DNA of 64,000 nucleotides. Source: Candidatus Latescibacterota bacterium. Lineage in GTDB: Bacteria > Latescibacterota > UBA2968. The first letter of the stretch is position 1. Each line of letters opens with the position of its first letter. The stretch lies in the NCBI GenBank assembly GCA_965232265.1, contig CBDDPH010000002.1, positions 2,008,290 to 2,072,289 of the forward strand. The letters are read 5' to 3'. The notes beneath the pieces were generated by a model that saw only the letters and a program-made list of their open reading frames with translations, had not been told where the DNA came from and made no database searches. Shown here one piece after another: positions 1-53,629 of the stretch. A program made the position numbers and the translations under genes.

Positions 1-470
1 TACGCACGCCGGTTTCTTCAAAAACTTCGCGCTGGACGCAGTCGGCAATGTGTTCGCCCGGGTGCAGAGCGCCTCCGGGTAGTTTGTAGTAGGGCCTTGT
101 GGAGCTTCGATGCAATTCGCTGACGACCAGGAGTTCTTCGCGCTCGTTGATGACGACCCCGCCCGCACCTATGTAATGCGTGGCGTATTCGGGGATGAAG
201 GCATTGGATTCGAGGGGTTTGGTGAGCAAAAGGTAGTCTGTTCCCGAGTGATGGAATGTAAATCCCGATTGTGTTGCCACTGGAATGAGTGCTGCCCGTT
301 CAATGGGGATGTTGATCCAGACGAGCTTAAATCCCTCGCGTTTCCACTCCTGGAGGGATGCTGAAAGGCGCGTGCGAAATTCTTCGGGATCAGGCGGCAG
401 TGCTGTTGGATCCAGTTCAATGCCCTGAAAGCGGTTTGGCGTGGCTTCGAGTATTTGCATGGATTACCTC
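1..470 (-). CDS. NUDIX hydrolase, 5' partial at window edge
   Basis: Minus-strand frame from the ATG at 470 is open to position 1 (not in the ORF track because it has no stop in the window). Translation MQILEATPNRF... contains the Nudix box GGALHPGEHIADCVQREVFEETGV (GX5EX7REUXEEXGU). Confidence 0.75.
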
Positions 471-869
471 GTTCAAAACTATCCGCAGGCATGTCCCCTT
501 GATTAAACCCTCAAGGGCAGGCTCTGCGGGTGTAAGCAGGGATGGACGCAGATGGAAAATCAAAAGTATTGGGATAGGATGGATGTGAGTCGGCACATGG
601 TAAGGAACATCACAAAATCGGGCAAGGGGTTTGCGGTGGGCAGTTCTACTTGACAGGGGTTATAGAGACAATCATATTTTATGAAGTATGAAGGGCACGA
701 AGAACACGGAACGGGGTATGAAGGCGAGTTCATTTGAGCATGACTGCGACGCCTCATTAGCTGTTCACGGATCGTAGGGGCGAAAAATCTTTCGCCCAAT
801 GGATTGGAAAATTTGCGATGGGTTGAAACAGTTGATGGATTGGAGGCGTTAAATTGAGGGAGGGATAAC

Positions 870-2057
870 ATGGTGTCTATTTTTGAACAGTTGGGTGTAC
901 GTACGATTATCAATGCTGCCGGGCCAGTTACGCGTTTGAGCGGGGCACGCATGGATGAGGATGTGATTGATGCGATGCGCGAGGCGGCGCAGGTGTGTGT
1001 GGATATTGCAGAGCTACAGGCAGGGGCCGGGCAGGTGATTGCCGAGGTGACAGGTGCCGAAGCCGGGTATGTGACATCGGGGGCTGCGGCGGGTCTGGTG
1101 CTCGCGACGGCGGCGTGTGTTACGGGTATGGATCCGGGCAAGATGAACCGATTGCCCGATACGTCGGGGATGAAAAATGAGGTGATTATGCCCCGGTCGC
1201 ATCGCAATTTTTACGATCACGCGGTGCGTTCGGTGGGTGTGACGCTCATTGAGGTGGGCATTCCAGACCGGTTTAGCGGCGCGGGAGTGCGCGATACAGA
1301 GGCATGGGAAATTGCGGATGCAATCACCGATCAGACCGCGGCGATTGTCTATGTGGCGCAGTCTTTCGCGCAGCCGCCACTGCCAGAGGTGACGGCTGTG
1401 GCGCACAAACGCGGGGTGCCCGTCGTTGTCGATGCTGCAGGACAGTTGCCTCCTGCGGCAAATTTGAAGCAGTTTGTCAGCGAAGGCGCCGATGCGGTTT
1501 GTTTTAGCGGCGGGAAAACCATTGGCGGGCCTCAAGGTGCAGGTATTTTGTGCGGGCGCCGGGATCTGATTTCCTCGGCGGCATTGCAGCATCTGGATCT
1601 GGATGTGTATTATGATTTGTGGGATCCGCCGCCTGAATTGATCGATAAATCCGCGTTGCCGGGTGCGCCACAGCACGGGATTGGGCGACCGTGTAAGGTG
1701 GGGAAAGAGCAGATTGCGGGGCTGATGGTTGCGTTGCAAAAGTTCGTGGCAGAAAGCGACGAGGCGCGGCAGGCCCGCTGGTCGCGGTGCCTTCAGAGTT
1801 TGGCAGATGAGATAAGTGATTTGCCGGGGTGCGATATGAGTATGGATGCCTACCGCACAATACCCATTTTGCGGCTCGCGCTTTCTCCGGCGGAAAGAGG
1901 CGTGGCGGTGGCGCGGCAGTTAATGGAAGGTGACCCGAGTATTCATGTGAGTACATCGGGTGTTTACGATGGAATATTGATTTTTAATCCCATGTGTTTG
2001 TCAGAAGATATGATCAAACCGATAGCTGATCGATTAAAAGTGTTGATCGCCCGGTAG
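870..2057 (+). CDS. SelA-like PLP-dependent enzyme (DgaE/L-seryl-tRNA selenium transferase family)
   Basis: 395 aa ORF with RBS GAGGGAGG upstream. The FSGGKTIGGPQGAGIL motif with the PLP lysine is typical of the SelA/DgaE family. Confidence 0.55.
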   Translation: MVSIFEQLGVRTIINAAGPVTRLSGARMDEDVIDAMREAAQVCVDIAELQAGAGQVIAEVTGAEAGYVTSGAAAGLVLATAACVTGMDPGKMNRLPDTSGMKNEVIMPRSHRNFYDHAVRSVGVTLIEVGIPDRFSGAGVRDTEAWEIADAITDQTAAIVYVAQSFAQPPLPEVTAVAHKRGVPVVVDAAGQLPPAANLKQFVSEGADAVCFSGGKTIGGPQGAGILCGRRDLISSAALQHLDLDVYYDLWDPPPELIDKSALPGAPQHGIGRPCKVGKEQIAGLMVALQKFVAESDEARQARWSRCLQSLADEISDLPGCDMSMDAYRTIPILRLALSPAERGVAVARQLMEGDPSIHVSTSGVYDGILIFNPMCLSEDMIKPIADRLKVLIAR

Positions 2058-2111
2058 GCGCGGATTTTAAACCCGCGCTTACACGTTGTACTTTTTTTAA
2101 GGAGGCGTGCC

Positions 2112-2792
2112 ATGGGTGTTATCACTATTTCGAGGGAATACGGCAGTGATGGTCGCACTGTTGCCCGAAAGGTTGCCGAGGCATTGTCTTATCACAATAT
2201 AGACAAAGATTTGCTCGTGGAGGTGGCACAAAAAGCCCAGGTTCCCGTGTCAGAAGTCGAACGCTATGACGAACTGCCCGAACATCCCGCACTGAGAATT
2301 TTGAGAAAATTTCTCACGCCCGGATACGCAGATACCTTGACGGGGTTGTCGGAATACGAGTGGTGGGCTGCGGCGACCGTGCCCGAGTTGTCGGAGCACA
2401 AAGAGCAGGCGCTGACGACAATGGATGAAGAGGTGTATGCGAATCTGACCGCGGAGGTGGAGATGCAGTTGGCCGATCAGGGCGATGTGGTTATACTGGG
2501 GAGGGGTGGGCAGGCTGTGTTGAAAGGCCGCGAAGATACGTTGCATGTGCGCGTGGTGGCGACGCAAAATTTTAAGCTGGATGTGGTGAAAGACCGCGAT
2601 CAATTGACCAACGATGAGGATGCAATAAGGCGAATGAGAGAAGTGGATGATCGCCGCAAGACGTATATCAAACGCCATTATAAGGTGAATTGGGATAATC
2701 CACATCTATACTCTGTCATAGTGAATACCGGCTTTTTGGGCGTTGATGGGGCCGTGGATGCGATTGTTTGCGCGGCGCAGAAGGTGTTATAA
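2112..2792 (+). CDS. cytidylate kinase-like family protein
   Basis: N-terminus MGVITISREYGSDGRTVARKVAE matches the cytidylate-kinase-like (Cytidylate_kin2) ITISRxxGSGG motif. RBS AAGGAGG. Confidence 0.55.
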   Translation: MGVITISREYGSDGRTVARKVAEALSYHNIDKDLLVEVAQKAQVPVSEVERYDELPEHPALRILRKFLTPGYADTLTGLSEYEWWAAATVPELSEHKEQALTTMDEEVYANLTAEVEMQLADQGDVVILGRGGQAVLKGREDTLHVRVVATQNFKLDVVKDRDQLTNDEDAIRRMREVDDRRKTYIKRHYKVNWDNPHLYSVIVNTGFLGVDGAVDAIVCAAQKVL

Positions 2793-2914
2793 AAGTAAGA
2801 AGTGAGAAAACCCCACCCCGTCACCCAAAGGTTGTTGCCTCATCCGACTTCCTACTTCACAGTGAACGGGTCTGAACTGCGACCAGTTGTACACCGTTCC
2901 CTACTTCATCCTTC

Positions 2915-4327
2915 TCAAAGTCCCATTTCGATGTACGCCCGCGCGATTTTTTCTATGGCGATGACAAAAGCAGCGGTGCGTAAATCTGGCACATTGTCGC
3001 GCGAGTTGCGGATTTCACTCATGGTTTGATAGGCGATGCTCATGGTGTCTTCGAGGCCAGAACGCACGAGGTCGAGTTCATCCGAGCCGTAAGAGAGTCT
3101 TGCTTTGAGATGGTCGGGGACGGGTTTGCCGACCATTTCTTCCAGGGCGTTGATGATTTGCGCGCCGCGATGTGCTTCGAGGCGTCTGTCGAGGCGTCCG
3201 AAGCGGATGTGCGAGAGGTTCTTGATCCATTCAAAATAAGAGACTGTGACGCCGCCCGCGTTGAGGTAGGCGTCGGGTATGATGGTTTTGCCTGCTTTCC
3301 GCAATATGTCGTCTGCCGTGTAAGTGACGGGCCCGTTGGCCGCTTCTGCAATGACGGGTGCTTTGATGCGTTTGGCATTTTCCTGTGTGATCTGGCCTTC
3401 AAGGGCGGCTGGTATGAGCACGTCGCATTCTGCTTCGAGCAGGCTTTTGCCATTTGCGATATAGGTGGCTCCCGGAAAGTGTTTTAGTGAACCGCGTTCC
3501 GCGCGGTAAGCAGCGGCTTCTTCAACGGAAAATCCCTTCTCTGACATTATTGCCCCTTCGCGTTCAATAATGCCGATAATGCGCGCGCCACCTTCTTCTT
3601 CGAGATATTTGGTGGCGTGAGAGCCTACATTGCCCAATCCCTGCACGATGATGCGTTTGCCTTCCAAATTGCCTTCCAGACCCGCGTTTTTGACGTCTTC
3701 CGAGTTGTTAAAAAATTCTTTGATGCCGTAAAATACACCGCGTCCGGTTGCTTCCACGCGCCCCTGAATGCCGCCTTGGGAAAAGGGTTTGCCCGTTGTG
3801 CAGGCAATGGCGTTGATGTCTTCCGGGTGCAGGCTGCGATACGTGTCTGCGATCCAGGCCATTTCTCGTTCTCCAGTTCCCATGTCGGGTGCGGGAACGT
3901 TGAGAGCCGGATTGATATATCCCTTTTTGATCAATTCCTGTGCAAAACGCCGGGTGATGAGCTCGAGTTCGTGTTCGTTGTATTCTCGGGGATCAATGCA
4001 CAGGCCCCCTTTGGCGCCGCCAAAGGGCACATCCACGATCGCGCATTTGTACGTCATGAGTGCGGCGAGTGCTTCCACGTCATCCTGACTGACAGTGGGG
4101 GCGTAACGAATGCCGCCTTTGACGGGCAGGCGATGTTCGCTGTGAACCGAGCGCCATCCCGTGAAGATGCGATAGCTGTCGCGGAGTTTGACAAAGAAGC
4201 GCACGAGGTAAATGTTGTTGTTGATTTTGATCTGGTCAGCCAGTCCCGGGGGCAAATCGAGCGTTGCTACTGCGCGGTCAAACATGAGGTCAACGCTTTC
4301 TTTAAAGCTGGGTTCCTGTGCGGCCAT
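2915..4327 (-). CDS. gdhA: NAD(P)-specific glutamate dehydrogenase
   Basis: Carries Glu/Leu/Phe/Val dehydrogenase motifs (KGGIRYAP, GGAKGG) and a Rossmann GLGNVG. The likely start is the ATG at 4327 after GGAGA, not the ORF-track start at 4375. Confidence 0.85.
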   Translation of the reverse strand: MAAQEPSFKESVDLMFDRAVATLDLPPGLADQIKINNNIYLVRFFVKLRDSYRIFTGWRSVHSEHRLPVKGGIRYAPTVSQDDVEALAALMTYKCAIVDVPFGGAKGGLCIDPREYNEHELELITRRFAQELIKKGYINPALNVPAPDMGTGEREMAWIADTYRSLHPEDINAIACTTGKPFSQGGIQGRVEATGRGVFYGIKEFFNNSEDVKNAGLEGNLEGKRIIVQGLGNVGSHATKYLEEEGGARIIGIIEREGAIMSEKGFSVEEAAAYRAERGSLKHFPGATYIANGKSLLEAECDVLIPAALEGQITQENAKRIKAPVIAEAANGPVTYTADDILRKAGKTIIPDAYLNAGGVTVSYFEWIKNLSHIRFGRLDRRLEAHRGAQIINALEEMVGKPVPDHLKARLSYGSDELDLVRSGLEDTMSIAYQTMSEIRNSRDNVPDLRTAAFVIAIEKIARAYIEMGL

Positions 4328-4463
4328 AAGTATTTCTCCGGAAATGGTTGGGAAATGTGTAGATTGCCGTTTCAAACGGCAATGGGTAGGTGAAGTGAGA
4401 TGTAGGGGCGAAAAATTTTTCGCCCACCGCCAATGCCATGTAGGTGCGAGGCCGTCTCACCTC

Positions 4464-5365
4464 TTAACCGCTTTTAAGCAGATGACGCAAGGCTGGCTCG
4501 AGGTGGGGATGGGCAAAGGAGAAGTCGGTGTTTTCGAGGCGTGAGGAGATAACGCGGGTGCTTGCGAGCAGGAGGGCGTCGGCCATTTCGCCCAGTGCGA
4601 GTTTGGCGGCAAATGCGGGTAGCGGGAAAATTGTTGGGCGCGATAAGACGCGACCGAGGGTTTTGGTAAATTCGCGGTTGGTGACAGGTGTTGGCGATAT
4701 GGCGTTGATGGCGCCGCTGATGGATTCGTTGTCTATTGCAAAGAGGAATAGGGAGATCAGGTCGTCGAGGGTGATCCAGCTCATGTACTGATTGCCCGAT
4801 CCGATGATGCCGCCCAAGCCCAATTTGAAGGGTAAGCGCATTTTGCCGAGTGCTCCGCCTGTGGGGGACAGGACAATGCCGATGCGCGGATGAACGGTTC
4901 GTATGCCGGCTTCTGTGGCGGGTTTGGCGGCGTTTTCCCAGGCGATGGATACGTCCGGGAGAAAGCCTGCTCCCGGCTGGCTGTCTTCGGTGAGAATTTC
5001 GTCGCTGCGGTTGCCGTAATAACCGATGGCAGAAGCGGAAATGAAGACTTTTGGCGGCGGAGATATAGACGCGAGTGTTTGGGCGAGCAATGCGGTGCCC
5101 TGTACGCGGCTGTCGCGGATGCGCGCCTTTTGCGCTGCTGACCAGCGTCGGGAAGCGATGTTTTCTCCGGCGAGGTGTATGACCCCATCTATGTTGGTGA
5201 GGCGCGAGGGATCGAGGGTATCAGCAGATGGATCCCAGGTGATTTCATCTGTCGTTGCGGGCAGTGCGCCGGGTGAGAGATACGACGCGGTCGCCGCGTG
5301 CGTTCAGTGCGGTTTTGAGTGCTGAGCCAATGAGGCCAGAAGCACCGGATATCAGGATTTTCATG
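4464..5365 (-). pseudogene. YfcH-like (TIGR01777/DUF1731) NAD-dependent epimerase family, frameshifted near 5255-5285
   Basis: N-terminus MKILISGASGLIGSALK... starts at 5365 and hits a stop after RRTARNDR. The family continues in the other frame (ALPATTDEITWD...GVIHLAGENIASRRW...) to 4464. This is a single-nucleotide indel or a sequencing error. Confidence 0.45.
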
Positions 5366-5425
5366 ATTGGTACGGGCGGATTTGGAATCCGTTCCTGCCT
5401 CCTATTTTTTGAAGTTCGCCCCTGC

Positions 5426-5839
5426 CTACTGTTGATAGAGCATCAGGTAGATGATGACGCCGGTAATTGAGACGAATATCCAACTGGGCCAAACCCACCG
5501 GGCCAGGCGGCGGTGGCGATCAAAGTCGCGTTTGTAGGCTCGCCAGACAAGCGCGATGATAAAGGGTACGTTGACAGCGGCGAGGATGATGTGCGGGATG
5601 AGTATGGCAAAGTAGATCGGGCGCGTCCAATCGCGGTGTGGGTAGGGCACAGAGCCGACCTGACTGTGATAGATGAGGTATGAGGTCAGAAAGAGCGCCG
5701 ATAAGATCAACGCTGTGACCATGCATTTCTGGTGCGTTTTGATGTCGCCGCGTTTGATATAGATGAATCCCAACAGCAGAAAGATGGTGCAAAGTCCGTT
5801 GAGAAAGGCGTTTGCCGCGGGCAAGTCTGTGATGGACAT
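5426..5839 (-). CDS. DUF420 family membrane protein
   Basis: 137 aa with four predicted TM helices. Pattern IKRGDIKTHQKCM...ALILSALFLTSYLIYH is typical of DUF420 (YozB-like). Confidence 0.5.
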   Translation of the reverse strand: MSITDLPAANAFLNGLCTIFLLLGFIYIKRGDIKTHQKCMVTALILSALFLTSYLIYHSQVGSVPYPHRDWTRPIYFAILIPHIILAAVNVPFIIALVWRAYKRDFDRHRRLARWVWPSWIFVSITGVIIYLMLYQQ

Positions 5840-5842
5840 AGT

Positions 5843-8419
5843 CTAACGTTTATCCAGTGCCTGTTCAATCATGTGGAGGATATAGCCGGTGTGCGCTTCG
5901 GTGCTCGCATCGGTTGTTTTTTTGTTTTTGAGTATGTTTTGAATGGCTTTGAGGTTGTGCAGGGCAATGGCGCGAGATGCATGGATCCGCTTGCTTTCGG
6001 GGTCGATGATGTTGACGAGTCGATTGACGTATTCCGCCTGCAAGTTCTGGCGGAAAGAATTGACTGTGCCTTCGGCGTCTGCAGCAAAAACGGCATCGGT
6101 CAAGTCGGTCATCATGTCGGACAATGCGTATTCGTTGCCATAGAGCGCGGTGTCGAGCAGGCGGGCCTGTACTGTGGGGTGCAAGAGATGGCTGAAGACG
6201 CGCTGTTGAATGCCGATTACGCGGTCGTGAATTTTGGGGTCTTCTGGCGTGCGGGAGAAGCCGAATCCGCGTCTTTGTTCCTGCAAATGGTTATAGAGCC
6301 CGGGCGGCATATCAAACGCATGGGGTGATAGGACGTATTTGGCGAGTGCGTCCATCGCGCGTTTTTGGTCGGCGAGCGCGACTGGCGTGAATGGCCGGGT
6401 TGCGCCGGGTTGGCCGATGACTGCGCGGTCCACGTAAATGCCGCCGATATAGCGGGAGAGGACGGTTGTGGCATTGCGATGCTGCGCCGTGAGAAGGAGG
6501 TAGGCCGTTTTCAGTTCGTGATAGGTGTTGCCCGGGGTGTTGTATTTTGCGAGGATTTTGTTTTTGACGTCGTGTACCAGTTCAATCCGACCCGTGGCAT
6601 GGGCAACGGCATCGCTGCTGAGGTCGTAGATCATCACGCGCGGGTCAATGCCGCTATTTGACGAGCGCATGTCGTCGGCGTCATTGCCAAACATGAGTTC
6701 GGGTTCTGTGGAGCGCGCGAGAATTTTTTCGAGGCGTTTTTGTTCGTCTTTGACATTGTCCCGCCCGGGAGAATAGCCGAATTCAATGGCCCAAATATCG
6801 TAGGGACCTGGGCGCGTGGTGTAGTAATGTCCCTGTTTTTGATCGGGCAATGCGAGGTTGACACCTGGATAGTCCATGACCGAACCCGTAAGCCCCATTT
6901 TGCCGGTTCGGCTTTTGTCGTGGAGTTGTGCTGGGGTGTGTAGTTGACTGGATTTCATGTTGTGGTTGAGACCGAGCGTGTGGCCGATTTCGTGCAGGAT
7001 GAGAAAGTAGATGCTCTCTTTGAGCAGGGCGTCAACTTCCAGTTTGGAGGTGCCAGAAACGCGCAGGGCCTGGGTGCCAAAGAGGTTGGATACGTGTAGC
7101 TCGTGGCCCAGGGAACAGTAGTGCGGCAGGTCTGAATCGGCAGGCATCGCGTTGTCAAAGAGCTTGTCATAGCGCAGGCTGCTTCTGAGAAATGCAAATT
7201 CGAGCATGATGTCGGCACCCAATATTTGCCCGGTTCGCGGGTTGACAAAGCTCGGTCCATATCCGCCGAATGGCGGATTGGGCGACGAGGTCCAGCGCAG
7301 GACATTGTATCGGATATCGCCGGCTTCCCAATCGGCATCATCGGGCTGTTCTTTGATCGCCACGGCATTTTTGAAGCCAGCGACTTCAAAGGCGATATTC
7401 CAGGCGAGAGCCGCTTTTTTGATGGTTGGACGCAGTTCTTTCGGGGTGGTGTTTTCTATCCAATAGGTGATTGGCACGGCTGGTTCAGAGCGTTTGGCTT
7501 TGGGATCCCTTTTTTTGAGGTGCCAGCGGTGAATTAAATCGCGATAAGGCGTTGCGCTTTTGGAGGTCAGGTCGGTCACTTGTGTGCTGAAGTAGCCGAC
7601 GCGCGGGTCGTCAAATCGCGGTTGGTAATCGTTTTTGGGCATTTCGATCAGGGTGTGTTGCAGGGTAATCGTCACATTGCGGGCATCGGTTATGCCGTCT
7701 CCACCGCCTTTGGGGTTGGGATTTTCATAGGTGTAGGCGATGATGAGGTCCGTGTTTTTGGGGTAATTTTTGATGGATAGACATTTGGTTTTGATTTTGC
7801 TGAGTTTGCCCAGAGAGAAATTGTTGCGGTTCTGCGTTCGGTTGACGCGATGGAGGGCTTCTGTGAGGAAGATACCGTCGGCTTTGATGAGGATGTTGCG
7901 CGTGGAATCATCGCGTGCCGCGATTTTTTCCGATACGAGGATAGAAGGGCTGATGTTGGCTTTGGCTGCGCGACTCAGGGCGTTTTTGGGATCGAAATAG
8001 TACGCGGTGTTTTCAGATATGATTTCGATTTTGTCAAAGTGCTTCTGAATGGAAAGCACGCGGCTGCCGCGATAGTTGCCCCTGTATGTTCCCGCTGATA
8101 CGGGTGCATTAACGGTGTGGGTGAAGTAGATGTATTCTTTGCCGATTTGCGATTCGCGGATTTGCAGTTGCAACGCGCCTGTGGTCGTGTCTTCATAAAC
8201 GGTGAAGAGACCGAGATACTTGCGGCTGGATTTGGTGAGGTCGGCAATGGTTTTCTTGGGTGTGTCCTTTTTGGGCGTTTCTTTTTTTAGGGCTTTTGCG
8301 GGGGCTCGTTTGGCGACCTTTGTCGAATCCGCAGGTTGTTTTTCCTGCGCCTGAACAGAGCAGGCGATTCCAAAGACAAGGGCGACTGCGATTAATAGGC
8401 GTTGAATATTCACGGTCAT
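5843..8419 (-). CDS. secreted zinc metalloprotease (DUF4953/DUF5117 family)
   Basis: Signal peptide MTVNIQRLLIAVALVFGIACSVQA follows RBS AAGGAGA. Has the HEXXH-type motif LHEIGHTLGLNHN. About 860 aa. Confidence 0.55.
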   Translation of the reverse strand: MTVNIQRLLIAVALVFGIACSVQAQEKQPADSTKVAKRAPAKALKKETPKKDTPKKTIADLTKSSRKYLGLFTVYEDTTTGALQLQIRESQIGKEYIYFTHTVNAPVSAGTYRGNYRGSRVLSIQKHFDKIEIISENTAYYFDPKNALSRAAKANISPSILVSEKIAARDDSTRNILIKADGIFLTEALHRVNRTQNRNNFSLGKLSKIKTKCLSIKNYPKNTDLIIAYTYENPNPKGGGDGITDARNVTITLQHTLIEMPKNDYQPRFDDPRVGYFSTQVTDLTSKSATPYRDLIHRWHLKKRDPKAKRSEPAVPITYWIENTTPKELRPTIKKAALAWNIAFEVAGFKNAVAIKEQPDDADWEAGDIRYNVLRWTSSPNPPFGGYGPSFVNPRTGQILGADIMLEFAFLRSSLRYDKLFDNAMPADSDLPHYCSLGHELHVSNLFGTQALRVSGTSKLEVDALLKESIYFLILHEIGHTLGLNHNMKSSQLHTPAQLHDKSRTGKMGLTGSVMDYPGVNLALPDQKQGHYYTTRPGPYDIWAIEFGYSPGRDNVKDEQKRLEKILARSTEPELMFGNDADDMRSSNSGIDPRVMIYDLSSDAVAHATGRIELVHDVKNKILAKYNTPGNTYHELKTAYLLLTAQHRNATTVLSRYIGGIYVDRAVIGQPGATRPFTPVALADQKRAMDALAKYVLSPHAFDMPPGLYNHLQEQRRGFGFSRTPEDPKIHDRVIGIQQRVFSHLLHPTVQARLLDTALYGNEYALSDMMTDLTDAVFAADAEGTVNSFRQNLQAEYVNRLVNIIDPESKRIHASRAIALHNLKAIQNILKNKKTTDASTEAHTGYILHMIEQALDKR

Positions 8420-8547
8420 ATCTCCTTTCTGTTTATTATAGATATCTTTGCTACGCAAAATTACCTAATTGTTTTAAAATTTTCAAGTGTGTATTGTATA
8501 TCGACTATAGAGCTATCAATTGACTTTGTGTTTTTTTTCTGTATCTT

Positions 8548-8790
8548 TTGCGTTCAATTTTTGGAAGGATGAGATCACTAACGCGAGGTATGACAATGGC
8601 AGAGGCGGGAAGTGCGTGGTTGACGCCTAAGGAGATCGCGGATCGGCTGAGCAGTCGAAAGGCGAGAGAAGTGCAAGAAGATTTGCTCTATGGACGCCGA
8701 ACACGGCGCGAAATATTGGATATGGTGATGGAAGCTGTGGGCTGCAATGAATATTCGGCAGAAGATTTTTTGCGTGAAATTGTGAAATAA
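8548..8790 (+). CDS. hypothetical small protein
   Basis: 80 aa ORF with an internal start at MTMAEAG after GAGGTA. I recognise no family. Confidence 0.2.
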   Translation: MRSIFGRMRSLTRGMTMAEAGSAWLTPKEIADRLSSRKAREVQEDLLYGRRTRREILDMVMEAVGCNEYSAEDFLREIVK

Positions 8791-8899
8791 ATTAAAAATT
8801 AAGGGTTGGGTGCTAACTGACCACGAATTGCTATTTATGTTTGCCGCGTATGGGTTTTTCAATACGCGGCTCGATATTTTTTGGCCTTTAGGGTACGCC

Positions 8900-10570
8900 A
8901 TGTCTGAGGTTTCTAAGTCTGATTATCTGGTCATTGGCAGTGGTATTGCGGGCCTCTCGTTCGCGCTTAAAGCGGCAGAGACTGGGTCTGTCACCCTGAT
9001 TACGAAAAAAGAGTTTCAGGAATCCAATACCAATTACGCACAGGGCGGTATTGCTTCTGTTTTGCATCCCGACGACTCGTTTGCGCTCCATAGGGAAGAT
9101 ACGATTCAGGCTGGCGCGGGTTTGTGCCGCGAAGATGTGGTGGATTTGGTGGTACAGGCAGGTCCCGATATGGTTAAGGCGCTCATTGCATGGGGGGCTG
9201 AGTTTACGCGAGCGAGTGAGGGAGGTGTGAAAGCGAATGAACGGCGTACAACTCAAGATCTCGCGCTCGGACGCGAGGGCGGGCATTCAAAGAATCGCAT
9301 TGTGTATGCCGCCGATCTGACCGGGCGAGAGATTGAGCGGGCGTTGACCGAAGCGGCGTCAGCACATCCCAATATCGCGTTGTACGAGCATCACATGGCG
9401 ATTGATTTGATCACGGAACACCATGTGTATGGTTCGAAAATTTCGACGCCGGGGAAGATTCAGTGTTGGGGTGTTTACGCACTGGATGCCGTGCATGGAG
9501 AGGTGAAGACTTTTTTGGCAAAGTTTACACTGTTGTGTAGTGGGGGGAGTGGTCAGATTTATTTGCATTCGACCAATCCGGCCATTGCAACGGGCGATGG
9601 TATTGCCATGGCGTATCGCGCGGGCGCGAGTGTGGGCAATTTGGAGTTTATGCAGTTTCATCCCACGACGCTTTATCACCGGGATGCAGATTCCTTTTTG
9701 ATTTCTGAAGCGGTGCGCGGGCATGGCGGTATTCTGGTAGATCGGGCGGGGCGGGCGTTTATGGACGATTACCACGAGATGGGGCCGCTTGCACCTCGGG
9801 ATGTGGTCGCGCGGGCAATTGACAGCGCGTTAAAAAAGAGCGGTGATCCCTGTGTGTTTCTCGATATTACGCATTGTCCGAGTGCAGAGCTTCAGGAGAG
9901 GTTTCCCACGATTTATGAACGGTGTTTGCAATTTGGCATTGATATAACGCAGCAGCCCATTCCGGTTGTGCCCGCGGCGCACTATATGTGCGGTGGGGTG
10001 TTCACAGATACGCATGGACGCACGGATATCGAAAGGCTTTACGCTTCGGGTGAGGTCGCCTGTACGGGATTACACGGGGCGAATCGCCTGGCGAGCAATT
10101 CGCTACTGGAAGCTCTGGTTTTTTCCGATCGTGCGTTTTCCGATATCCGACGGCACATAGATGCGCGGCTCGATTTTCCCGATGTGCCAGCATGGCAAGA
10201 CGATGATGTGTTTAATACAGAAGAATGGGTGTTGCTATCACACGACCGGCAAGAGGTACAGCGTTTGATGTGGGATTATGTGGGGATTGTGCGGTCGGAT
10301 TTTCGATTGAAGCGTGCAGCCCGTCGCATTGGCGTGATTGTGCAGGAGGTCGAAGAATTTTATAAGCGCACACAAGTTACCGAGGCATTGCTGGAGCTGC
10401 GTAATATGACGACTGTTGCCGCACTGACTGTGCGTTGTGCATTGTCTCGCCGCGAAAGCCGGGGGTTGCATTATACGCTCGATTGTCCTGCGCCATTTAA
10501 GTCTGCAAAAGATACAGTGGTGTCTGCCTGGGAGACGTGGGGTGCGGGGTTGCCGGTGATTGACGTGTGA
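8900..10570 (+). CDS. nadB: L-aspartate oxidase
   Basis: FAD dinucleotide fold DYLVIGSGIAGLSFA, FAD-dependent succinate dehydrogenase/aspartate oxidase motifs, and a C-terminal helical domain. Start at ATG 8900. Confidence 0.85.
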   Translation: MSEVSKSDYLVIGSGIAGLSFALKAAETGSVTLITKKEFQESNTNYAQGGIASVLHPDDSFALHREDTIQAGAGLCREDVVDLVVQAGPDMVKALIAWGAEFTRASEGGVKANERRTTQDLALGREGGHSKNRIVYAADLTGREIERALTEAASAHPNIALYEHHMAIDLITEHHVYGSKISTPGKIQCWGVYALDAVHGEVKTFLAKFTLLCSGGSGQIYLHSTNPAIATGDGIAMAYRAGASVGNLEFMQFHPTTLYHRDADSFLISEAVRGHGGILVDRAGRAFMDDYHEMGPLAPRDVVARAIDSALKKSGDPCVFLDITHCPSAELQERFPTIYERCLQFGIDITQQPIPVVPAAHYMCGGVFTDTHGRTDIERLYASGEVACTGLHGANRLASNSLLEALVFSDRAFSDIRRHIDARLDFPDVPAWQDDDVFNTEEWVLLSHDRQEVQRLMWDYVGIVRSDFRLKRAARRIGVIVQEVEEFYKRTQVTEALLELRNMTTVAALTVRCALSRRESRGLHYTLDCPAPFKSAKDTVVSAWETWGAGLPVIDV

Positions 10571-10602
10571 AGTATGAATTGTGAAGTATGAAGGGAGTTT
10601 TT

Positions 10603-18284: not shown

Positions 18285-18460
18285 TGAAGTGTGAAGTGTG
18301 AAGGTATCCACGAAGGGCACGAAGTTACACGAAGAGATCGTAGGGGCGCCCCCTCGCGGTCGCCTTTCATCTGCGTTCATCTGCGTTCATCTGCGGATAC
18401 CTCTCAAGCACTTGACATCCTGGATTCAAAACCGTATTTTCCGCATCAAAGGAGAACACT

Positions 18461-19210
18461 GTGTTTGAACCCAAGATGAAAACATTTTACGACACCCACG
18501 GCTATCTCGTCGTAAAAAACCTTTTCGCAAAAAAAGAACTCACCGACGTTATTCAGCGCACCGACGAGATGATAGCCGATCCAGATCGAGCACCGAAAGG
18601 CGTCTCAGTCGGCCTTGAAGGCAATACCGTAAAAGACACATCAAACCCAGAAGCGGAAAATCACAGTGTGCGCGTTCTCGCATTTGTCGTGCGCTTTGAC
18701 CCCACCTATCGTCCCATTGCCAGACATCCCAAATTACTCGCACTCGTACGCGGCCTGATCGGACCGCGCATTCGCGTTTTTCGAGACCAGATGCTGCTCA
18801 AACCACCGGGCGGCCAGGCGAAACCACCGCATCAGGACCAGAGCTATTTTCGCGTACAACCCATCAACGGTCTCGTCACCGCCTGGATTGCCTTAGACGA
18901 GGCCACAAATACCAATGGCTGTATGCGTTATGTACCCGGCTCACACAGACACGGCATCTTCGACATCACCCATGACCCGGACCGCCCCGTGCATCACGTA
19001 CCCGATACAAACAATATCGAACTCCCCGAATCCGTCGCCTGTCCCGTGCCCGCAGGATCTGTCATATTTCACCATGGCTGCACCCTGCACCACAGCGAAA
19101 TCAATCACACAAACACATGGCGCAAAGCACTCATCCTCCACTACGCCACAACCGATTCTCGCTCTAAACGCGAACAACTCAACAGCGAAATCTCCCTTGA
19201 AATCGACTAA
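18461..19210 (+). CDS. phytanoyl-CoA dioxygenase (PhyH) family Fe(II)/2OG oxygenase
   Basis: HQDQSYF...WIALDEATNTNGCMRYVPGSH...H is the PhyH facial triad pattern. Confidence 0.7.
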   Translation: MFEPKMKTFYDTHGYLVVKNLFAKKELTDVIQRTDEMIADPDRAPKGVSVGLEGNTVKDTSNPEAENHSVRVLAFVVRFDPTYRPIARHPKLLALVRGLIGPRIRVFRDQMLLKPPGGQAKPPHQDQSYFRVQPINGLVTAWIALDEATNTNGCMRYVPGSHRHGIFDITHDPDRPVHHVPDTNNIELPESVACPVPAGSVIFHHGCTLHHSEINHTNTWRKALILHYATTDSRSKREQLNSEISLEID

Positions 19211-19299
19211 ATAAAGTCGCGTGTCGCCTTTTTCAATTTGCAACGCATTGTATCTTTGTAAGCAAAACATCAATCCCACATCCTCACCAGGAGACCACC

Positions 19300-20613
19300 A
19301 TGCGCCCGATTTGTCTCATCCTTCTGCTCCTCTTCACAGCCCCGGTTTATGCAAACGAGCATTACCGCGCTGCCGTAGATTCCCTACCCTCCAAAATCCC
19401 CGACCGCATAGTACTCAATTGGTCGGGAGATCCCACAACCACAGCATCGATCACCTGGCGCACCGACACGAGCATCACACAGGCCGAAGGTCAGATCGCA
19501 GAAGCCAAAGCCTCGGCCAATTTTGTCACATGGGCCAAGAGCGAAACAGCACGCACTGAAAAATGGGAACACAATGGCAATACTGCCCATTTCCATTCGG
19601 TCACATTCAAGGGTCTCAAACCCAACACCCTCTATGCCTATCGCGTGGGCAGTGGCGACATCTGGAGTTCCTGGTATCAATTTCGCACGGCCTCAACCGA
19701 ACCCGATGACTTCACCTTCATCTACTTTGGCGATGCACAAAATAATTTGCTCGCCCTGTGGGCACGCACCATTCGCACCGCTGTGCTCGACGCGCCCCAC
19801 GCCGACTTTATCCTCCACGCAGGCGACCTCGTCAACCGCGCCAACAGAGACAGCGAATGGGAGGAATGGTTTGAGTCTGGCGACTGGATCCATGCAAAAA
19901 TCCCCAGCATTCCTACGCCGGGGAATCACGAATACTATAAAAATGGGGTCACACGCCATCTATCTGTCCTATGGCGTCCGCATTTCACCCTGCCCGAAAA
20001 TGGCCCCAAAGGCTTTGAGGAAACCATCTATTACATAGACTATCAGGGGGCGCGCATCATCTCACTCAATTCCAATGAGCGCCACAAAGAACAGGTCCCA
20101 TGGCTGGAACAAGTGCTCAAAAACAACCCCCATAAATGGACCTTTGTCACATTCCATCACCCCGTCTATTCCGCGTCTGATGGCCGCGACAACAAAGACC
20201 TGCGCGAAGCCTGGAAACCCGTCTTTGACAAATACGCCGTCGATCTGGTGCTCCAGGGCCACGACCATACGTATGCCAGAGGGAACAACATCGGCAACGG
20301 CGTAACCATGCGCGACTCAACCAAAGGCACAGTTTATGTCGTATCGGTCAGCGGTCCCAAACAATACAAACTCAGAAAAGACCGCTGGATGACGCGCGGT
20401 GCGGAAAACACACAGCTTTATCAGGTCATTACTGTCTCTGGCGACACCCTGCACTACCGCGCAATGACCGCGGTGGGCGAACTCTACGATGCTTTTGATC
20501 TGGTCAAACAGATGGGCAAACCCAACAAACTCATCGATCGCGCCCCCCAAGCTCCCGAACGCCGATGGGAAAATACCCTTGAAAAGAAAGACAAAGACGA
20601 CAAAGTTTATTAG
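19300..20613 (+). CDS. secreted metallophosphoesterase (purple acid phosphatase-like)
   Basis: Signal peptide MRPICLILLLLFTAPVYA plus calcineurin-like motifs GDAQNN, GDLVNRAN, GNHEY and GHDHTY. Confidence 0.7.
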   Translation: MRPICLILLLLFTAPVYANEHYRAAVDSLPSKIPDRIVLNWSGDPTTTASITWRTDTSITQAEGQIAEAKASANFVTWAKSETARTEKWEHNGNTAHFHSVTFKGLKPNTLYAYRVGSGDIWSSWYQFRTASTEPDDFTFIYFGDAQNNLLALWARTIRTAVLDAPHADFILHAGDLVNRANRDSEWEEWFESGDWIHAKIPSIPTPGNHEYYKNGVTRHLSVLWRPHFTLPENGPKGFEETIYYIDYQGARIISLNSNERHKEQVPWLEQVLKNNPHKWTFVTFHHPVYSASDGRDNKDLREAWKPVFDKYAVDLVLQGHDHTYARGNNIGNGVTMRDSTKGTVYVVSVSGPKQYKLRKDRWMTRGAENTQLYQVITVSGDTLHYRAMTAVGELYDAFDLVKQMGKPNKLIDRAPQAPERRWENTLEKKDKDDKVY

Positions 20614-20963
20614 AAGCTGTTTGCGCTGGGAGCGCAGGCGTCTCGCCTGCATACCATCTATGGAGCGAGAGGTACATATCTTTCACCATACCGCCCATTC
20701 ATCGCTCAAAATTTACACTTTTTCGCCCTTCATCACTGGATAGCATCATCCCAGGGCAGGCTCTGCCCACCTGCGGATTTAAATTCACGTTGTGAACAGT
20801 GCCGCAATACTGCATATTTCAGACAAAATGAGGTGCTTGGGCTTCTTTTTTTGTAATATGTGGCTCAATTTTTGGATAATGGCGTTTTCTGGCCTGATAT
20901 TTGCTTGTGGTCTGTGTGTTCCGTGTTCTAAAACAGACCACCCTCAGACTCAGGGCAACCCGC

Positions 20964-21884: not shown

Positions 21885-22093
21885 CGCGATTTCCCACCAT
21901 CAAATAGCCACAGAAAATGTAGGGGCGAAAAATTTTTCGCCCCGCCATGCGAACAAATAAAAAAATCCGCTCACAAAAAACCACTCGCCATACCTTCAGT
22001 GAGCGGTTTTTTAGGTTATGATACAGGGTCAAATAGGTATTAATTCAGGATTCGAATTAGCCAAAAGCACCTTCAGCCTATAAATCAGTCTGT

Positions 22094-22783: not shown

Positions 22784-22956
22784 CTACCCCTCCTCAATAA
22801 AGTATAATCGGCACGAACACCTACCATCACCCTCTTATCACTGGATAGAACCGTTCCAGTGCCGGCTCTGCTCATCCTTACATCATGACCCGCTTGCCGG
22901 CTGCTGCCCGCAAAGGCAGGGTTGCGGGCAAGCAGGTCCCAATTTAGACGATATTC

Positions 22957-25053
<2,097 letters not shown>

Positions 25054-25370
25054 AGTGGGTTCCTTTCTCGAAGATGGTGTGACGGGTCTCACTGTGCTAG
25101 TCTTCATTGTGCGACCTCCTCCTTGCTGTTGTGGTGATAACAGGTTATATTTGGGTTCAGAGTGGGGTGCGGTTGCCCAACCGTTCCTATCTCTGTATTC
25201 TCGGCGGAGGGCTTTTATGGCTTCCCAACCGATAGCCCTCCGCTCTGCCTGTGCTGAATACAGCAGACAGGCATCCCCGCAGCCATCATCTATGCCTGCG
25301 AGATTTTTTTGTTTATGCCATCTCTATCCCTCCAATCGTAGTTGCGTGGATTTCACATTGCCGTTTGAAA

Positions 25371-25433
25371 CGGGCGAAAGATTTTTCACCCCTACCTGGC
25401 ATTGGCGGTGGGCGAAAGATTTTTCACCCCTAC
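25371..25433. repeat. tandem pair of degenerate GCGAAA(G/A)ATTTTTC(G/A)CCCCTAC palindromic REP-like elements
   Basis: Two copies separated by CTGGCATTGGCGGTG. The same pair architecture recurs at 25948-26012. Confidence 0.7.
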
Positions 25434-25681
25434 AATTCGTGAACTGCTGGTGCGTGGGGTACAACGAGCCGTTTATCAGGCTCGTTCACCGTCGCAGTCA
25501 TGCTCGATTGAACTGGCCCCACATTACCCACTTGTGGGGCAGGCTCTGAAAGACGGCCAGTCCTGCTCGGAGCGGTTTACAACTGCGTCAGCAGTTCATT
25601 ACTCGCCTTCATACCCCGTTCCGTGGATCAGCCCGCCGTTTTACTGTTTTGTCGTGTACTTTGCAAAACGGGCAAAAAAAT

Positions 25682-25724
25682 ACCGAGTGTCACAAAGCCT
25701 ATGACACTCGGTTCATTTTTCATT
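25682..25724. terminator. bidirectional terminator-like hairpin (A-tract / hairpin / T-tract)
   Basis: CAAAAAAAT ACCGAGTGTCAcaaagcctaTGACACTCGGT TCATTTTTCATT. Confidence 0.4.
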
Positions 25725-25947
25725 GGCCGGCCAAATGCCATAGGCTGCGTACTTAGACCCAAGTAGAGATCAAGCTCGGTCCTTTCGGAGACCGAAACCA
25801 TAGCATTCAGCCGGCAGGAAGTTATACAGACTTTACCGCGGCTGCTTCCTGCCGGTCACTTAGGTTTAAATACGCGCCATTAGAATAAGACATTGACAAG
25901 CCTTGTCAACTCAAAAATTTCCCATAAGCTCCTTTTTTAATGGTTGC

Positions 25948-26012
25948 GAGGGGCGAAAGATTTTTCGCCCCTACATCGCATTGGTGGTGGGCGAAAGATC
26001 TTGCGGCCCTAC
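25948..26012. repeat. tandem pair of GTAGG..CCTAC palindromic REP-like elements
   Basis: GAGGGGCGAAAGATTTTTCGCCCCTAC ... GGGCGAAAGATCTTGCGGCCCTAC. Confidence 0.7.
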
Positions 26013-27118: not shown

Positions 27119-27343
27119 TTTGCCTCCTCAGTTAAATTAACGACCAACCCAACATCACAACGACGGGCGAAAAATTTTTAGCCCTACATCAAATAACAAA
27201 ACAACCTGCACATTGTCAACGCAGACCCCTTTCGCTATCGGCGAATTAACCTATTTACAACCGCTTGACGCCCCTCCCTGACCAACGTACATTGCCTATT
27301 CTCGCACAACACCATCTTTCACCTTTTAATAACAGATATTGCC

Positions 27344-41119: not shown

Positions 41120-41275
41120 GGCTCCTCCACTCATTTTTTGCACATAATGGAACACTATGTTATGTTTTGAGGTCTCACAAAGGTAAGAATTAGAACCAGA
41201 GACGCAAGTATGAAGTGTGAAGTGAGTACACTATCCAGCCCTCAAATATCCACTAACCATTAACCACCAACATCT

Positions 41276-41979: not shown

Positions 41980-42009
41980 GTAGGTGCGGGTTTTAAACCC
42001 GCACCTACG
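41980..42009. repeat. type-II palindromic REP-like element GTAGGTGCGGGTTTTAAACCCGCACCTAC
   Basis: Perfect 29-nt palindrome between the ABC ATPase and permease genes. Related copies at 2054-2082, 49421-49438 (half) and 60270-60296. Confidence 0.8.
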
Positions 42010-44633: not shown

Positions 44634-44787
44634 TCCGCAGGCATGTCCCTGCGGGTGTAAGCAGGGATGAATGCAGATGAATGCAGATGAATGTAGATAA
44701 AAAAGAGGGGCTGTGAAGTGCGACGTGTGATGAGATTCGGGCGAAAAATTTTTCGCCCCTACGATCCCTTCATGTCCTTCGTGGATT

Positions 44788-45408: not shown

Positions 45409-45862
45409 TTCATCTCTCCCATATTTTTTTCGTATTTGACCTTGACCTCAAATATAAGATTGGCTATATTTTTCGCCGACTGGCCTGTGAAAAAAACAAT
45501 ATCTTCGAAACGCACAGCGTTTCAGCAGTGTTGCCATACCAGTCCACGAGGCACCTGCTTGTTCCTTACGTCAAATTTGGCGATTTGGTGGAGGGACGGG
45601 TAGGTGCTTTTTGTTTTTTCTCAAAGTTGTGTTGTGACGCGGTTGGCCCAAGGGCAACCATTTCGTGTACCAAAAAAGAAAGGCCCTCGCGCGAGTTCTT
45701 GGCGGGACGGCGCGAGGACCCCAGATCACACCCACAGGTACAGGCGGTGTGTCATCAATAGCTTTTGGGCCAACCTCTTTTCCGTTGTGACGTAGCCGTT
45801 AAATGTTGTGTTTCAATAATATACAAGTTTTATATTTTTTGCTACTGCAAATTTGATACAAC

Positions 45863-45891
45863 TTGAAAAACCGCGGCAAGTGTCGTATAAT
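45863..45891 (+). promoter_or_regulatory. sigma70-type promoter TTGAAA-17nt-TATAAT upstream of recD2
   Basis: Near-consensus -35 and perfect -10 with a 17-nt spacer, about 50 nt upstream of ATG 45944. Confidence 0.5.
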
Positions 45892-45943
45892 TCTTCTACC
45901 AATCCGATTGAGTTGATGGGGGATCTGTTCGTCGAGGTTTTAT

Positions 45944-49416: not shown

Positions 49417-49473
49417 TTCAAACCCGCACCTACAGGAAATAGGCGAGGAGATTTTTCCCTCGCCTATTATTTT

Positions 49474-50088: not shown

Positions 50089-50265
50089 AGTTAAAGATTT
50101 TTTTTACGGATCAAAACCTTCTGGATTGCGGCTAAAATCCTGCCGCAATGACGACGACTACGCCTATCGTCACGCCTGCAGGCTCTAAGCAGGCGTCCAG
50201 TAAATTCAGGCAAGAAACTTATTTGAAAGATGAATAATTATCTACCTGCTGTTGCATTCCACCTC

Positions 50266-53592: not shown

Positions 53593-53629
53593 GGTAAAAT
53601 TATAGGACGGAATACTACTACCGATCTTC

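Follow-up and report, generated by a model that had tools for sequence, protein, structure and literature searches.

A mosaic of very small repeats, REP hairpins among them, at gene boundaries of a Latescibacterota genome

Why do the same short sequences recur between the genes of a bacterium, and do they form one system or several? The question is raised by a stretch of 64,000 nucleotides, here called the window, from a Candidatus Latescibacterota bacterium (assembly GCA_965232265.1, contig CBDDPH010000002.1). A sequence-only reading described tandem heptamers, decamer arrays, a GTAG-footed palindrome and small hairpins in its intergenic regions. It treated them as modules of one system organised like the bacterial interspersed mosaic elements (BIMEs) of E. 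coli. The best-supported reading of the data is a mosaic with rapid turnover, similar to BIMEs and to repetitive extragenic palindromes (REPs) and made of selfish or commensal small elements. The window probably holds a population of repeats from several families, independent of one another, whose members are very small, non-coding and non-autonomous; they accumulate, nest in one another and are lost at gene boundaries.

The modules are far too frequent for chance, as judged by dinucleotide-preserving shuffles of the window sequence. The heptamer pair GTGTGAAGTGTGAA, with up to two mismatches, has 7 matches where 0.38 are expected. For CACGAAGGGCACGAAG the numbers are 4 and 0.56 (sites include 687-702, 18309-18324 and, on the minus strand, 44768-44783), and for the double decamer 4 and 0.01 (sites include 18365-18400 on the minus strand, 44666-44704 on the plus strand and 60323-60355 on the minus strand). 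The palindrome GTAGGGGCG-N10-CGCCC has 13 matches against 0.44 expected. None of these four counts was reached by any shuffle. Tandem Repeats Finder independently reported arrays at 10561, 18285, 18366, 41206, 44666, 53626 and 60326.

Placement was determined by scanning both strands with loose patterns and by listing all intergenic spacers. Nearly all module matches are intergenic, although intergenic DNA makes up only about 12% of the window (88% is coding). The recurrence of short modules between genes, as first described, is thereby confirmed. The 10 REP-A and 5 REP-B or REP-C sites are all intergenic. One REP-A, at 42080, was flagged as coding but lies upstream of the true start of a permease gene, since the orthologues have 831 amino acids and not 860.

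Two kinds of sequence can be distinguished by folding. Blocks that contain hairpins fold better than their shuffles (z = -2 to -3), while the tandem arrays are unstructured (z = +0.3 to +1.0). The window contains no CRISPR-type regular array of identical repeats with unique spacers, and no tRNA or tmRNA gene was found. Rfam gave no match at gathering score in the window and five related loci, nor in E-value mode on 17800-18500.

The GTAG…CTAC palindrome, GTAGGGGCGAAAAATTTTTCGCCC, can be assigned to a known type. Judged by its sequence, it is a REP hairpin of the kind cognate to subclass 2.4 of the REP-associated tyrosine transposases (RAYTs, also called TnpA_REP). Foot and stem base read GTAG+GGGCGAAA…TTTCGCCC at 774, 4402 and 21919 and, on the minus strand, at 25372-26012 and 44736; the copy at 42080 has a GTAC foot. 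In the sections of Quentin et al. (2018; PMC6006769) that deal with subclass 2.4, its REPs carry GT[AG]G as their foot, have a stem that starts with three G-C pairs, and also come in "double-foot" forms. The same sections describe in-frame REP insertions between HuH and Y, a variable region there with short repeats, and a patchy distribution across phyla. In REP-A, too, a stable hairpin stands on a 5' GT[AG]G foot, and three G-C pairs form the base of its stem.

Further evidence comes from other genomes. Exact matches to GTAGGGGCGAAARATYTTTCGCCC were found in at least 118 stretches in a scan of one genome per species. The matches listed include Bacteroidota, Chloroflexota, Binatia, Desulfobacterota and Cyanobacteria, and also Chlorobi, Planctomycetota, Latescibacterota, Pasteurellaceae and others. 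In several matched loci of other phyla the palindrome lies within a gene for an HUH/Y1 transposase with the motifs MPNHIHGII … VGAKNFSPL … GTSKTIGSIVRGFKIGVTKW … WQRNY … YIxxNP. In these RAYT/TnpA_REP subclass 2.4 genes, the palindrome itself encodes VGAKNFSPL. The transposase has 2338 homologues, which their sources label "REP element-mobilizing transposase RayT", and the translated palindrome GAK[NDI][FL]SP is present in 61 of the best 120 of them. A literature search returned no match to the palindrome sequence.

Several of these homologues (P0197, P0231, P0188 and P0213) carry in-frame tandem peptide repeats in the variable linker beside VGAKNFSPL. Tandem duplication next to a REP thus also occurs inside the transposase gene.

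The earlier assignment to REPs and RAYTs was therefore right for the GTAG palindromes, which are identical to the REP in or beside RAYT 2.4 genes; the window itself holds no RAYT gene. Subclass 2.4 REPs (group 4 of Bertels) resemble those of the window in foot, stem base, long perfect hairpins, single-foot and double-foot forms and patchy distribution, as described in PMC6006769. The identical sequence of 24-28 nt stands in frame within RAYT genes between HuH and Y. Two differences can be named: Latescibacterota is not among the phyla named in the relevant sections of that paper, and the REPs here stand in a mosaic with tandem arrays. Neither the window nor the relatives sampled yielded a RAYT gene.

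REP dimers occur at three places in the window (25372-25433, 25948-26012 and 4402-4449). All have a conserved 14-nt linker and are arranged head-to-tail. The description of the mosaic as BIME-like is roughly right for the GTAG palindromes; it fails on the orientation of the dimers, which alternates in the BIMEs of E. coli. Relative to GC skew, REP orientation showed no consistent trend, on few sites. A dimer of REP-A and a second GTAG-footed REP can also be found in a common 5' untranslated region (UTR), just before AGGAGG…ATG, in four Latescibacterota species (L031, L054, L068 and L079). It lies at about 4100-4300 or 7780-7830 of these loci, and the loop of its second REP is variable. This conserved dimer could be a co-opted copy.

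Are the other modules parts of the same element? They are not: the modules are several independent families at common gene boundaries. In 1.18 Mb of loci selected for REP-A there is a single decamer array, and 63 kb of loci selected for decamers contain no GTAGGGGCG. REP-A and decamers are therefore independent, since each is found elsewhere without the other. The sequence-only reading had described the modules as one mosaic repeat system, used in different combinations. Within the window, with both kinds of site restricted to intergenic DNA, arrays lie near GTAG hairpins only marginally more often than chance predicts (6 of 11 clusters, where 3.1 are expected; P=0.06); elsewhere the families are independent.

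The heptamer units in the window are GTGTGAA, GTATGAA and GTGAGAA. Heptamer arrays were located at 10561-10594, 18282-18304, 41206-41229 and 53623-53645 (reverse complement, GTGAGAA), as first proposed, while a further site proposed at 44712-44735 is only a weak match. In each of the four sequence sets examined, 7 is the commonest period of short intergenic arrays. It accounts for 54 of 100 arrays in the set of 118 genome loci, for 23 of 50 in REP-A-selected loci from IMG/VR, for 10 of 26 in decamer-selected loci (a tie with period 10) and for 13 of 26 in the window and its relatives. Near REP-A (up to 120 nt), heptamer arrays are enriched 2.7-fold in the 118 genome loci (P=0.004). In 43 IMG/VR loci, 2 such adjacencies were observed and 2.7 expected, which is no enrichment. 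Because the enrichment was not reproduced, local adjacency of heptamers and REP-A is not claimed.

The decamer arm has a fixed end, ATCCGCAG, and in many cases this end is placed precisely at a TGA stop codon. Three-unit decamer arrays were found in seven unrelated IMG/VR stretches, always starting (T)TAACCGCAGATG and with no GTAGGGGCG anywhere in those loci. In many cases two of these arrays face each other there as the inverted arms of a palindromic element of about 100 nt, with a small G+C hairpin between them. Inverted arms of this kind, TTAACCGCAG…CTGCGGTTAA, can be seen in two unrelated contigs, L177 (827-896, 5533-5630 and 7143-7241) and L179 (2927-3036), and these contigs are also rich in other heptamer arrays. 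We know of no description of such an element family.

Decamer arrays beside a CCGCAGG/CCTGCGG hairpin had been reported at four sites. The hairpin occurs at two of them only: 481-541, where it is split by a 27-nt insert, and 44633-44666. The arrays at 18365-18400 and 60323-60355 end in CTGCGGAT and have no hairpin. The hairpin module, called F4, is restricted to a lineage, since a metagenome scan found it at only four loci. One of these holds a full copy after a stop codon; in two of the four, F4 lies within the N-terminus of an open reading frame (ORF) for a PAS protein. In that other organism (L124 350-420 and L125 2070-2130), the F4 sequence is read through as codons (…RHVPAGVSRDGH…) of the PAS-domain ORF.

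Turnover can be observed directly by comparing relatives. Among named organisms, the proteins of the window find their best matches in Candidatus Latescibacterota. The close relatives were taken from public assemblies and have amino acid identities to the window of 97% (L126), 94% (L127), 93% (L119 and L130), 84% (L120) and 82% (L121). Eight junctions around the permease operon (J1 to J8) were compared with L126, L127 and L130, leaving aside the sequence of the GDSL|RecD2 spacer. Seven of the eight, all but that spacer, differ by the presence, absence or exchange of a module.

At J1 (41206-41229) the window has heptamers, L126 has a longer array with two hairpins, and L127 and L130 have nothing. 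At J2 the site of the REP-A at 42080 is empty in L127 and L130, with no target duplication at the insertion. In L126, J3 is only 5 nt long, against 154 nt in the window; in L127 and L130 it contains F4 with a different F3-type hairpin and decamers, without a REP or CACGAAG arm. At J6 (49417-49433), the REP-B of L126 is full-length but interrupted by a nested insert, and there is no REP-B in L127. J7 (50121-50198) is a spacer of 177 nt in the window and of 1-35 nt in relatives. At J8 (53623-53645), the heptamers of the window correspond to two decamer arrays in L126 and to nothing in L127 and L130. Array copy number also differs at orthologous sites, as in the decamer array at 44666-44704 when compared with L127 and L130.

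L119 provides two further examples. The spacer at 464-869 is only 204 nt long there. The window has two extra blocks flanking a conserved promoter-like core: one of about 99 nt (476-574, with F4, F3 and decamer), which is absent from the orthologous spacer, and one of about 106 nt (words and the REP-A around 774-797). At the junction between the FAD-protein gene and guaA, the window has heptamers and L119 a decamer array. A spacer of 535 nt (45409-45943) lies upstream of a RecD2-like gene. It is almost unchanged in length in L127 and L130 (531 nt), measures 382 nt in L126, has no Rfam match, and could hold an RNA of a new kind or a regulatory region.

How might such a mosaic arise? If the process resembles that of the REP/RAYT pairs already studied, the folded single-stranded REP hairpin would be bound during replication by an HUH/Y1 enzyme whose single-copy gene lies elsewhere in the genome. 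With the GTAG foot as guide, the enzyme would cut and rejoin beside the foot, so that copies could spread or be removed without target duplication. Guide-directed cleavage by TnpA_REP has been described, and REP cleavage and strand transfer by a RAYT are known only for pairs from E. coli, S. maltophilia and Marinomonas (PMC8266576). Heptamer arrays, CACGAAG arms and decamer arms would gain and lose units by slippage. The decamer arm is a distinct element with its own fixed end, and the small hairpins F3 and F4 nest in one another. Mosaics would result because inserts are tolerated only in the intergenic DNA, and because some elements land next to or within others.

Several observations weigh against this account. 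Neither the window nor the sampled Latescibacterota loci (about 116 kb from six loci of close relatives and about 40 kb from five other loci) gave a match in tblastn with seven RAYTs. No RAYT or Y1 gene was found in the window, and Pfam recognised no Y1 transposase in ten small ORFs adjacent to repeats. The enzyme is therefore unproven for this lineage; the REP inside or flanking a subclass 2.4 gene was seen in other organisms only (L095, L111, L118 and L014). The REP-A copies in the window are all single-foot and their dimers head-to-tail, unlike the inverted pairs known as REPINs. Two inserts in relatives, at J5 of L126 and J6 of L130, have terminal inverted repeats and target duplications of 8-9 nt, with heptamers or a REP inside. 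Such ends are the mark of a DDE-type miniature inverted-repeat transposable element (MITE) as opposed to a Y1 enzyme, and there must accordingly be at least two mobilising activities. The REP dimer conserved in a 5' UTR hints at selective retention of some copies.

An extension of the account is a long shot. The heptamer and decamer arrays would themselves be made by, or be targets of, a single-strand cut-and-rejoin activity of the HUH/Y1 type, and would not be mere products of slippage. Hints can be found in the dominance of period 7 among intergenic arrays in every REP-bearing set and in the fixed decamer end, which lands 3' of T(G/A)TGA, the heptamer core. Different array types also take each other's place at orthologous junctions, and peptide repeats stand beside the REP in RAYT genes. 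If true, the link would tie a 35-year-old puzzle, that of heptamer arrays like the short tandemly repeated repetitive (STRR) sequences of cyanobacteria, to RAYT-like enzymes across phyla.

Other explanations can be offered for the same data. Words of 7-10 nt might arise by chance or low complexity, and some sites are indeed weak (44713-44734 and 63318-63349), or the arrays might be artefacts of metagenome assembly. Either origin is practically impossible and is refuted by the shuffles and by independent assemblies. Junction sequences are identical in independent assemblies of the relatives, so that the differences between junctions are not artefacts. Heptamers, F3-type hairpins and GTAG hairpins also occur in other Latescibacterota chromosomes (L026, L031, L054, L068 and L079). 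It is unlikely, but far less so, that the modules are punctuation selected by the host: terminators, stabilisers of mRNA 3' ends, Rho-entry sites, translation stops, or sites for proteins such as IHF, DNA gyrase or Pol I, in the manner of E. coli BIMEs. At 10561, 18282, 44633, 53645 and 60355 a module starts inside a stop codon or right at it. Such starts are common among the arrays (TGA|TCCGCAG at three loci), the heptamers themselves supply TGA, and heptamer and decamer arrays have TGA in all three frames on one strand, usually the sense strand. Arrays at stop codons are also the pattern to be expected if only stop-preserving inserts survive at gene ends. Some modules stand between a stop codon and a canonical terminator (49417; L122) or in a 5' UTR (679-797) and are thus probably transcribed, and the REP dimer conserved in one 5' UTR of four species also favours punctuation. 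A required function is argued against by the 93-97% identical relatives, in which modules are absent or exchanged at the same junctions; in L126, convergent genes are separated by a mere 5 nt that hold no element. In the 20 kb scanned for terminators (1-20000) no REP hairpin is terminator-like. Only one hairpin near a module was called (2819-2799, minus strand), and it coincides in part with the heptamer-like words at 2793-2810; canonical terminators exist separately, as seen by eye at about 34860 and 49440. The lack of Rfam matches and of structure in the arrays also speaks against punctuation, though some REP copies may have a host function.

A different possibility, rather improbable, is a single composite mobile element of about 90-150 nt, MITE- or BIME-like, that moves whole and leaves single modules as decay products. 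Its layout would be an ATCC-CACGAAG arm, a central GTAG hairpin and a decamer arm ending in GGAT. All modules had been said to occur together at 18283-18400 and, reverse-complemented, at 44633-44767. The module order is indeed common to 18305-18400 and the reverse complement of 44633-44786, and the ends form an imperfect inverted repeat, GGTATCC(A/G)C…GGATACC. A moving composite would also suit the inverted pairs of decamer arms around a small hairpin in other contigs, and the J5 insert of L126, whose 118 nt include CACGAAGGGATTGTAGGGGCG, have terminal inverted repeats of 9 nt and come with a putative target duplication of 8 nt. The two composites cannot, however, be aligned as copies: their central hairpins differ, and mean column identity in a three-way alignment is 48%. 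J3 of the relatives combines F4 and decamers without REP or CACGAAG arm, REP-A and decamers are unlinked outside this lineage, and arrays and hairpins are only marginally close in the window. Pairing of the array arms into a long hairpin within the window's composites was rejected by folding (z > 0).

Independent families in a mosaic are not without precedent, and the repeats are a known kind of genomic litter in a new example rather than a new system. The mosaic works like E. coli BIMEs and like the mosaics of STRR and small repeats in cyanobacteria. It fails the strict definitions of BIME and REPIN on orientation. With E. coli BIMEs it shares extragenic mosaics at operon boundaries, a GTAG-footed palindrome with short conserved motifs, and REP dimers with a conserved linker. 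BIMEs differ by their alternating Y and Z units, which are head-to-tail here, and by their L, S, l and r linkers, in place of which the window has tandem 7- to 10-mers and small hairpins. The STRR sequences of cyanobacteria are reportedly tandem heptanucleotide arrays, intergenic and variable between relatives, and the small dispersed repeats found with them are said to include hairpins of about 25 nt nested in other repeats. Known STRR units are CCCCAGT, TTGGTCA and CAACAGT. The window resembles them in its intergenic heptanucleotide arrays at many loci, its nested hairpins and its high variability, and differs in unit sequences and phylum. To our knowledge, the STRR description includes nothing like the decamer arm and its fixed end, ATCCGCAG.

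In Pseudomonas, the inverted pairs called REPINs are the presumed mobile unit. Like the present repeats, REPINs are non-autonomous, form hairpins and are presumed to be mobilised by a RAYT (PMC3116915). The RAYT subclass differs, and the window contains no inverted REP-A doublet with spacer, as no inverted pair was found within 200 nt. The perfect double-foot palindromes of 28-29 nt could be collapsed REPIN doublets. Heptanucleotide multicopy elements of Geobacter metallireducens (PMC2700814) also have four or five tandem heptamers at dozens of sites, with no known function there; their units are GGACCGG and MTYCTGA, and some copies are intragenic. Two inserts in relatives, as described, resemble MITEs. 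The window's own modules differ from these in having no clear target duplications, and its composites have only imperfect inverted ends of 7-9 nt. A literature search found no report of such repeats in this phylum.

The individual modules, all on the plus strand unless stated, can be followed along the window. F4, ATCCGCAGGCATGTCCC…CTGCGGGTGTAAGCAGGG, lies at 481-541 and is interrupted at 498-524 by a 27-nt F3-type hairpin (CCCTTGA…TCAAGGG with GCAGGCTC; nested fold z = -2.1). It is followed by a decamer remnant of about 1.5 units, GATGGACGCAGATGGAAAA, at 541-559. The sequence TTGACA-17-CATATT at 650-678 is promoter-like, not a repeat, and is conserved in L119, L120 and L121. Directly downstream are words of the heptamer and CACGAAG type, TTATGAAGTATGAAGGGCACGAAG…GTATGAAGG (679-724). 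The segment 705-773 is common to 25409-25625, where it is reverse-complemented and has extra inserts. A REP-A hairpin with a 5' GTAG foot, GTAGGGGCGAAAAATCTTTCGCCC, was found by motif scan and folding at 774-797.

The REP-B palindrome GTAGGCGCGGATTTTAAACCCGCGCTTAC at 2054-2082 contains the stop codon of the upstream gene as its TAG. At 2793-2904, heptamer-like AAGTAAGAAGTGAGAA right after a stop codon is joined by the hairpin GTGAACGG…CCGTTCCCTAC (2862-2904). The block at 4385-4449 consists of GGTGAAGTGAGAT words, a REP-A (4402-4425), the 14-nt linker ACCGCCAATGCCAT and a second GTAG-footed sequence, and a degenerate REP-B-like palindrome follows at 5370-5398. The heptamer array GTGTGAA/GTATGAA x4 at 10561-10594 holds the stop codon of the FAD-protein gene. 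It had been placed immediately upstream of the guaA start; the array is real and ends 8 nt ahead of the ATG, which is at 10603 and not at 10588.

The array of TGAAGTG x2.7 at 18282-18304 begins where a fragment of an FtsX gene has its stop codon. Next come the CACGAAG arm TATCCACGAAGGGCACGAAGTTACACGAAGAGATC (18305-18339), REP-C, a degenerate GTAGGGGCG-footed hairpin with a poor fold (18340-18364), and on the minus strand the decamer arm (CGCAGATGAA)x3 ending in ATCCGCAG (18365-18400). Intact relatives of the REP-C-type hairpin occur in L126, L120 and L121. The gene fragment itself is an orphan that encodes just the last 90 residues of an FtsX permease; in the stretch 17893-18284, two hairpins of about 20 nt (TTTTGGAACTTACTCCAAAA and a variant) stand ahead of it.

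An F3-type hairpin with GGCAGGCTCTG and CCTGCGGAT is located at 20734-20778, a REP-A at 21919-21946, and an F3-like hairpin, CACTGGA…TCCAGTG with CCGGCTCTGC, at 22839-22871; a near-identical module is present in the Latescibacteria locus L026. On the minus strand, the head-to-tail REP-A dimer at 25372-25433 has its 14-nt linker in common with the second one at 25948-26012. The F3 hairpin CCCACA…TGTGGG with GCAGGCTCTG (25518-25548) is nested in the segment related to 705-773. A degenerate REP-A lies on the minus strand at 27162-27187.

Around the permease operon, the heptamer array at 41206-41229 is followed by a perfect REP-B palindrome, GTAGGTGCGGGTTTTAAACCCGCACCTAC (41980-42008), present at J2 in the window only, and by the GTAC-footed REP-A (42080-42107) upstream of the true permease start. 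The F4 module at 44633-44666 is uninterrupted and abuts the TGA stop of the permease gene. It is continued by the decamer array GATGAATGCA x3.3 (44666-44704) and, on the minus strand at 44736-44786, by a REP-A (44736-44762, with a CTAC foot at the 3' end on the plus strand) and the CACGAAGGACATGAAG arm (44763-44786). Half a REP-B directly after a stop codon occupies 49417-49433. The spacer modules at 50121-50198 are CTGGAT with a hairpin and ATGACG, and a GCAGGCTCT hairpin. The minus-strand array of GTGAGAA at 53623-53645 lies at the stop codon of a MetE-like gene. Finally, a REP-B-like palindrome (60270-60296) and a decamer arm (60323-60355) that abuts the TGA stop of lepA form a minus-strand block at 60270-60355.

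Tiny repeats of this kind rapidly remodel the intergenic DNA of a poorly known, uncultured phylum and differ between its strains. They rewrite gene ends by providing stop codons, and they also sit in UTRs. Gene calling is affected through spurious ORFs and wrong starts, as for guaA and the permease, and so are metagenome assembly and strain typing. Close relatives with filled and empty sites provide a compact setting in which to study the spread of subclass 2.4 REPs and heptamer arrays.

Other oddities lie among the modules. In the region 12400-16400, the GC skew reverses at about 15-16 kb, whichever strand the genes are on. Next to the reversal are a low-GC stretch of small ORFs without Pfam match, a 246-bp tandem duplication (14944-15431) and dispersed repeats of 48-134 nt. 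This region could be a replication terminus or origin, or the boundary of a rearrangement or island. An epimerase/DUF1731 gene on the minus strand (4467-5364) has a frame change near 5246-5251 relative to its L119 orthologue, which is either a pseudogene or an assembly error. On the minus strand, a 716-amino-acid ORF (22957-25107) contains a run of 28 glycines, encoded by (CCACCG)x12.8 at 24257-24333.

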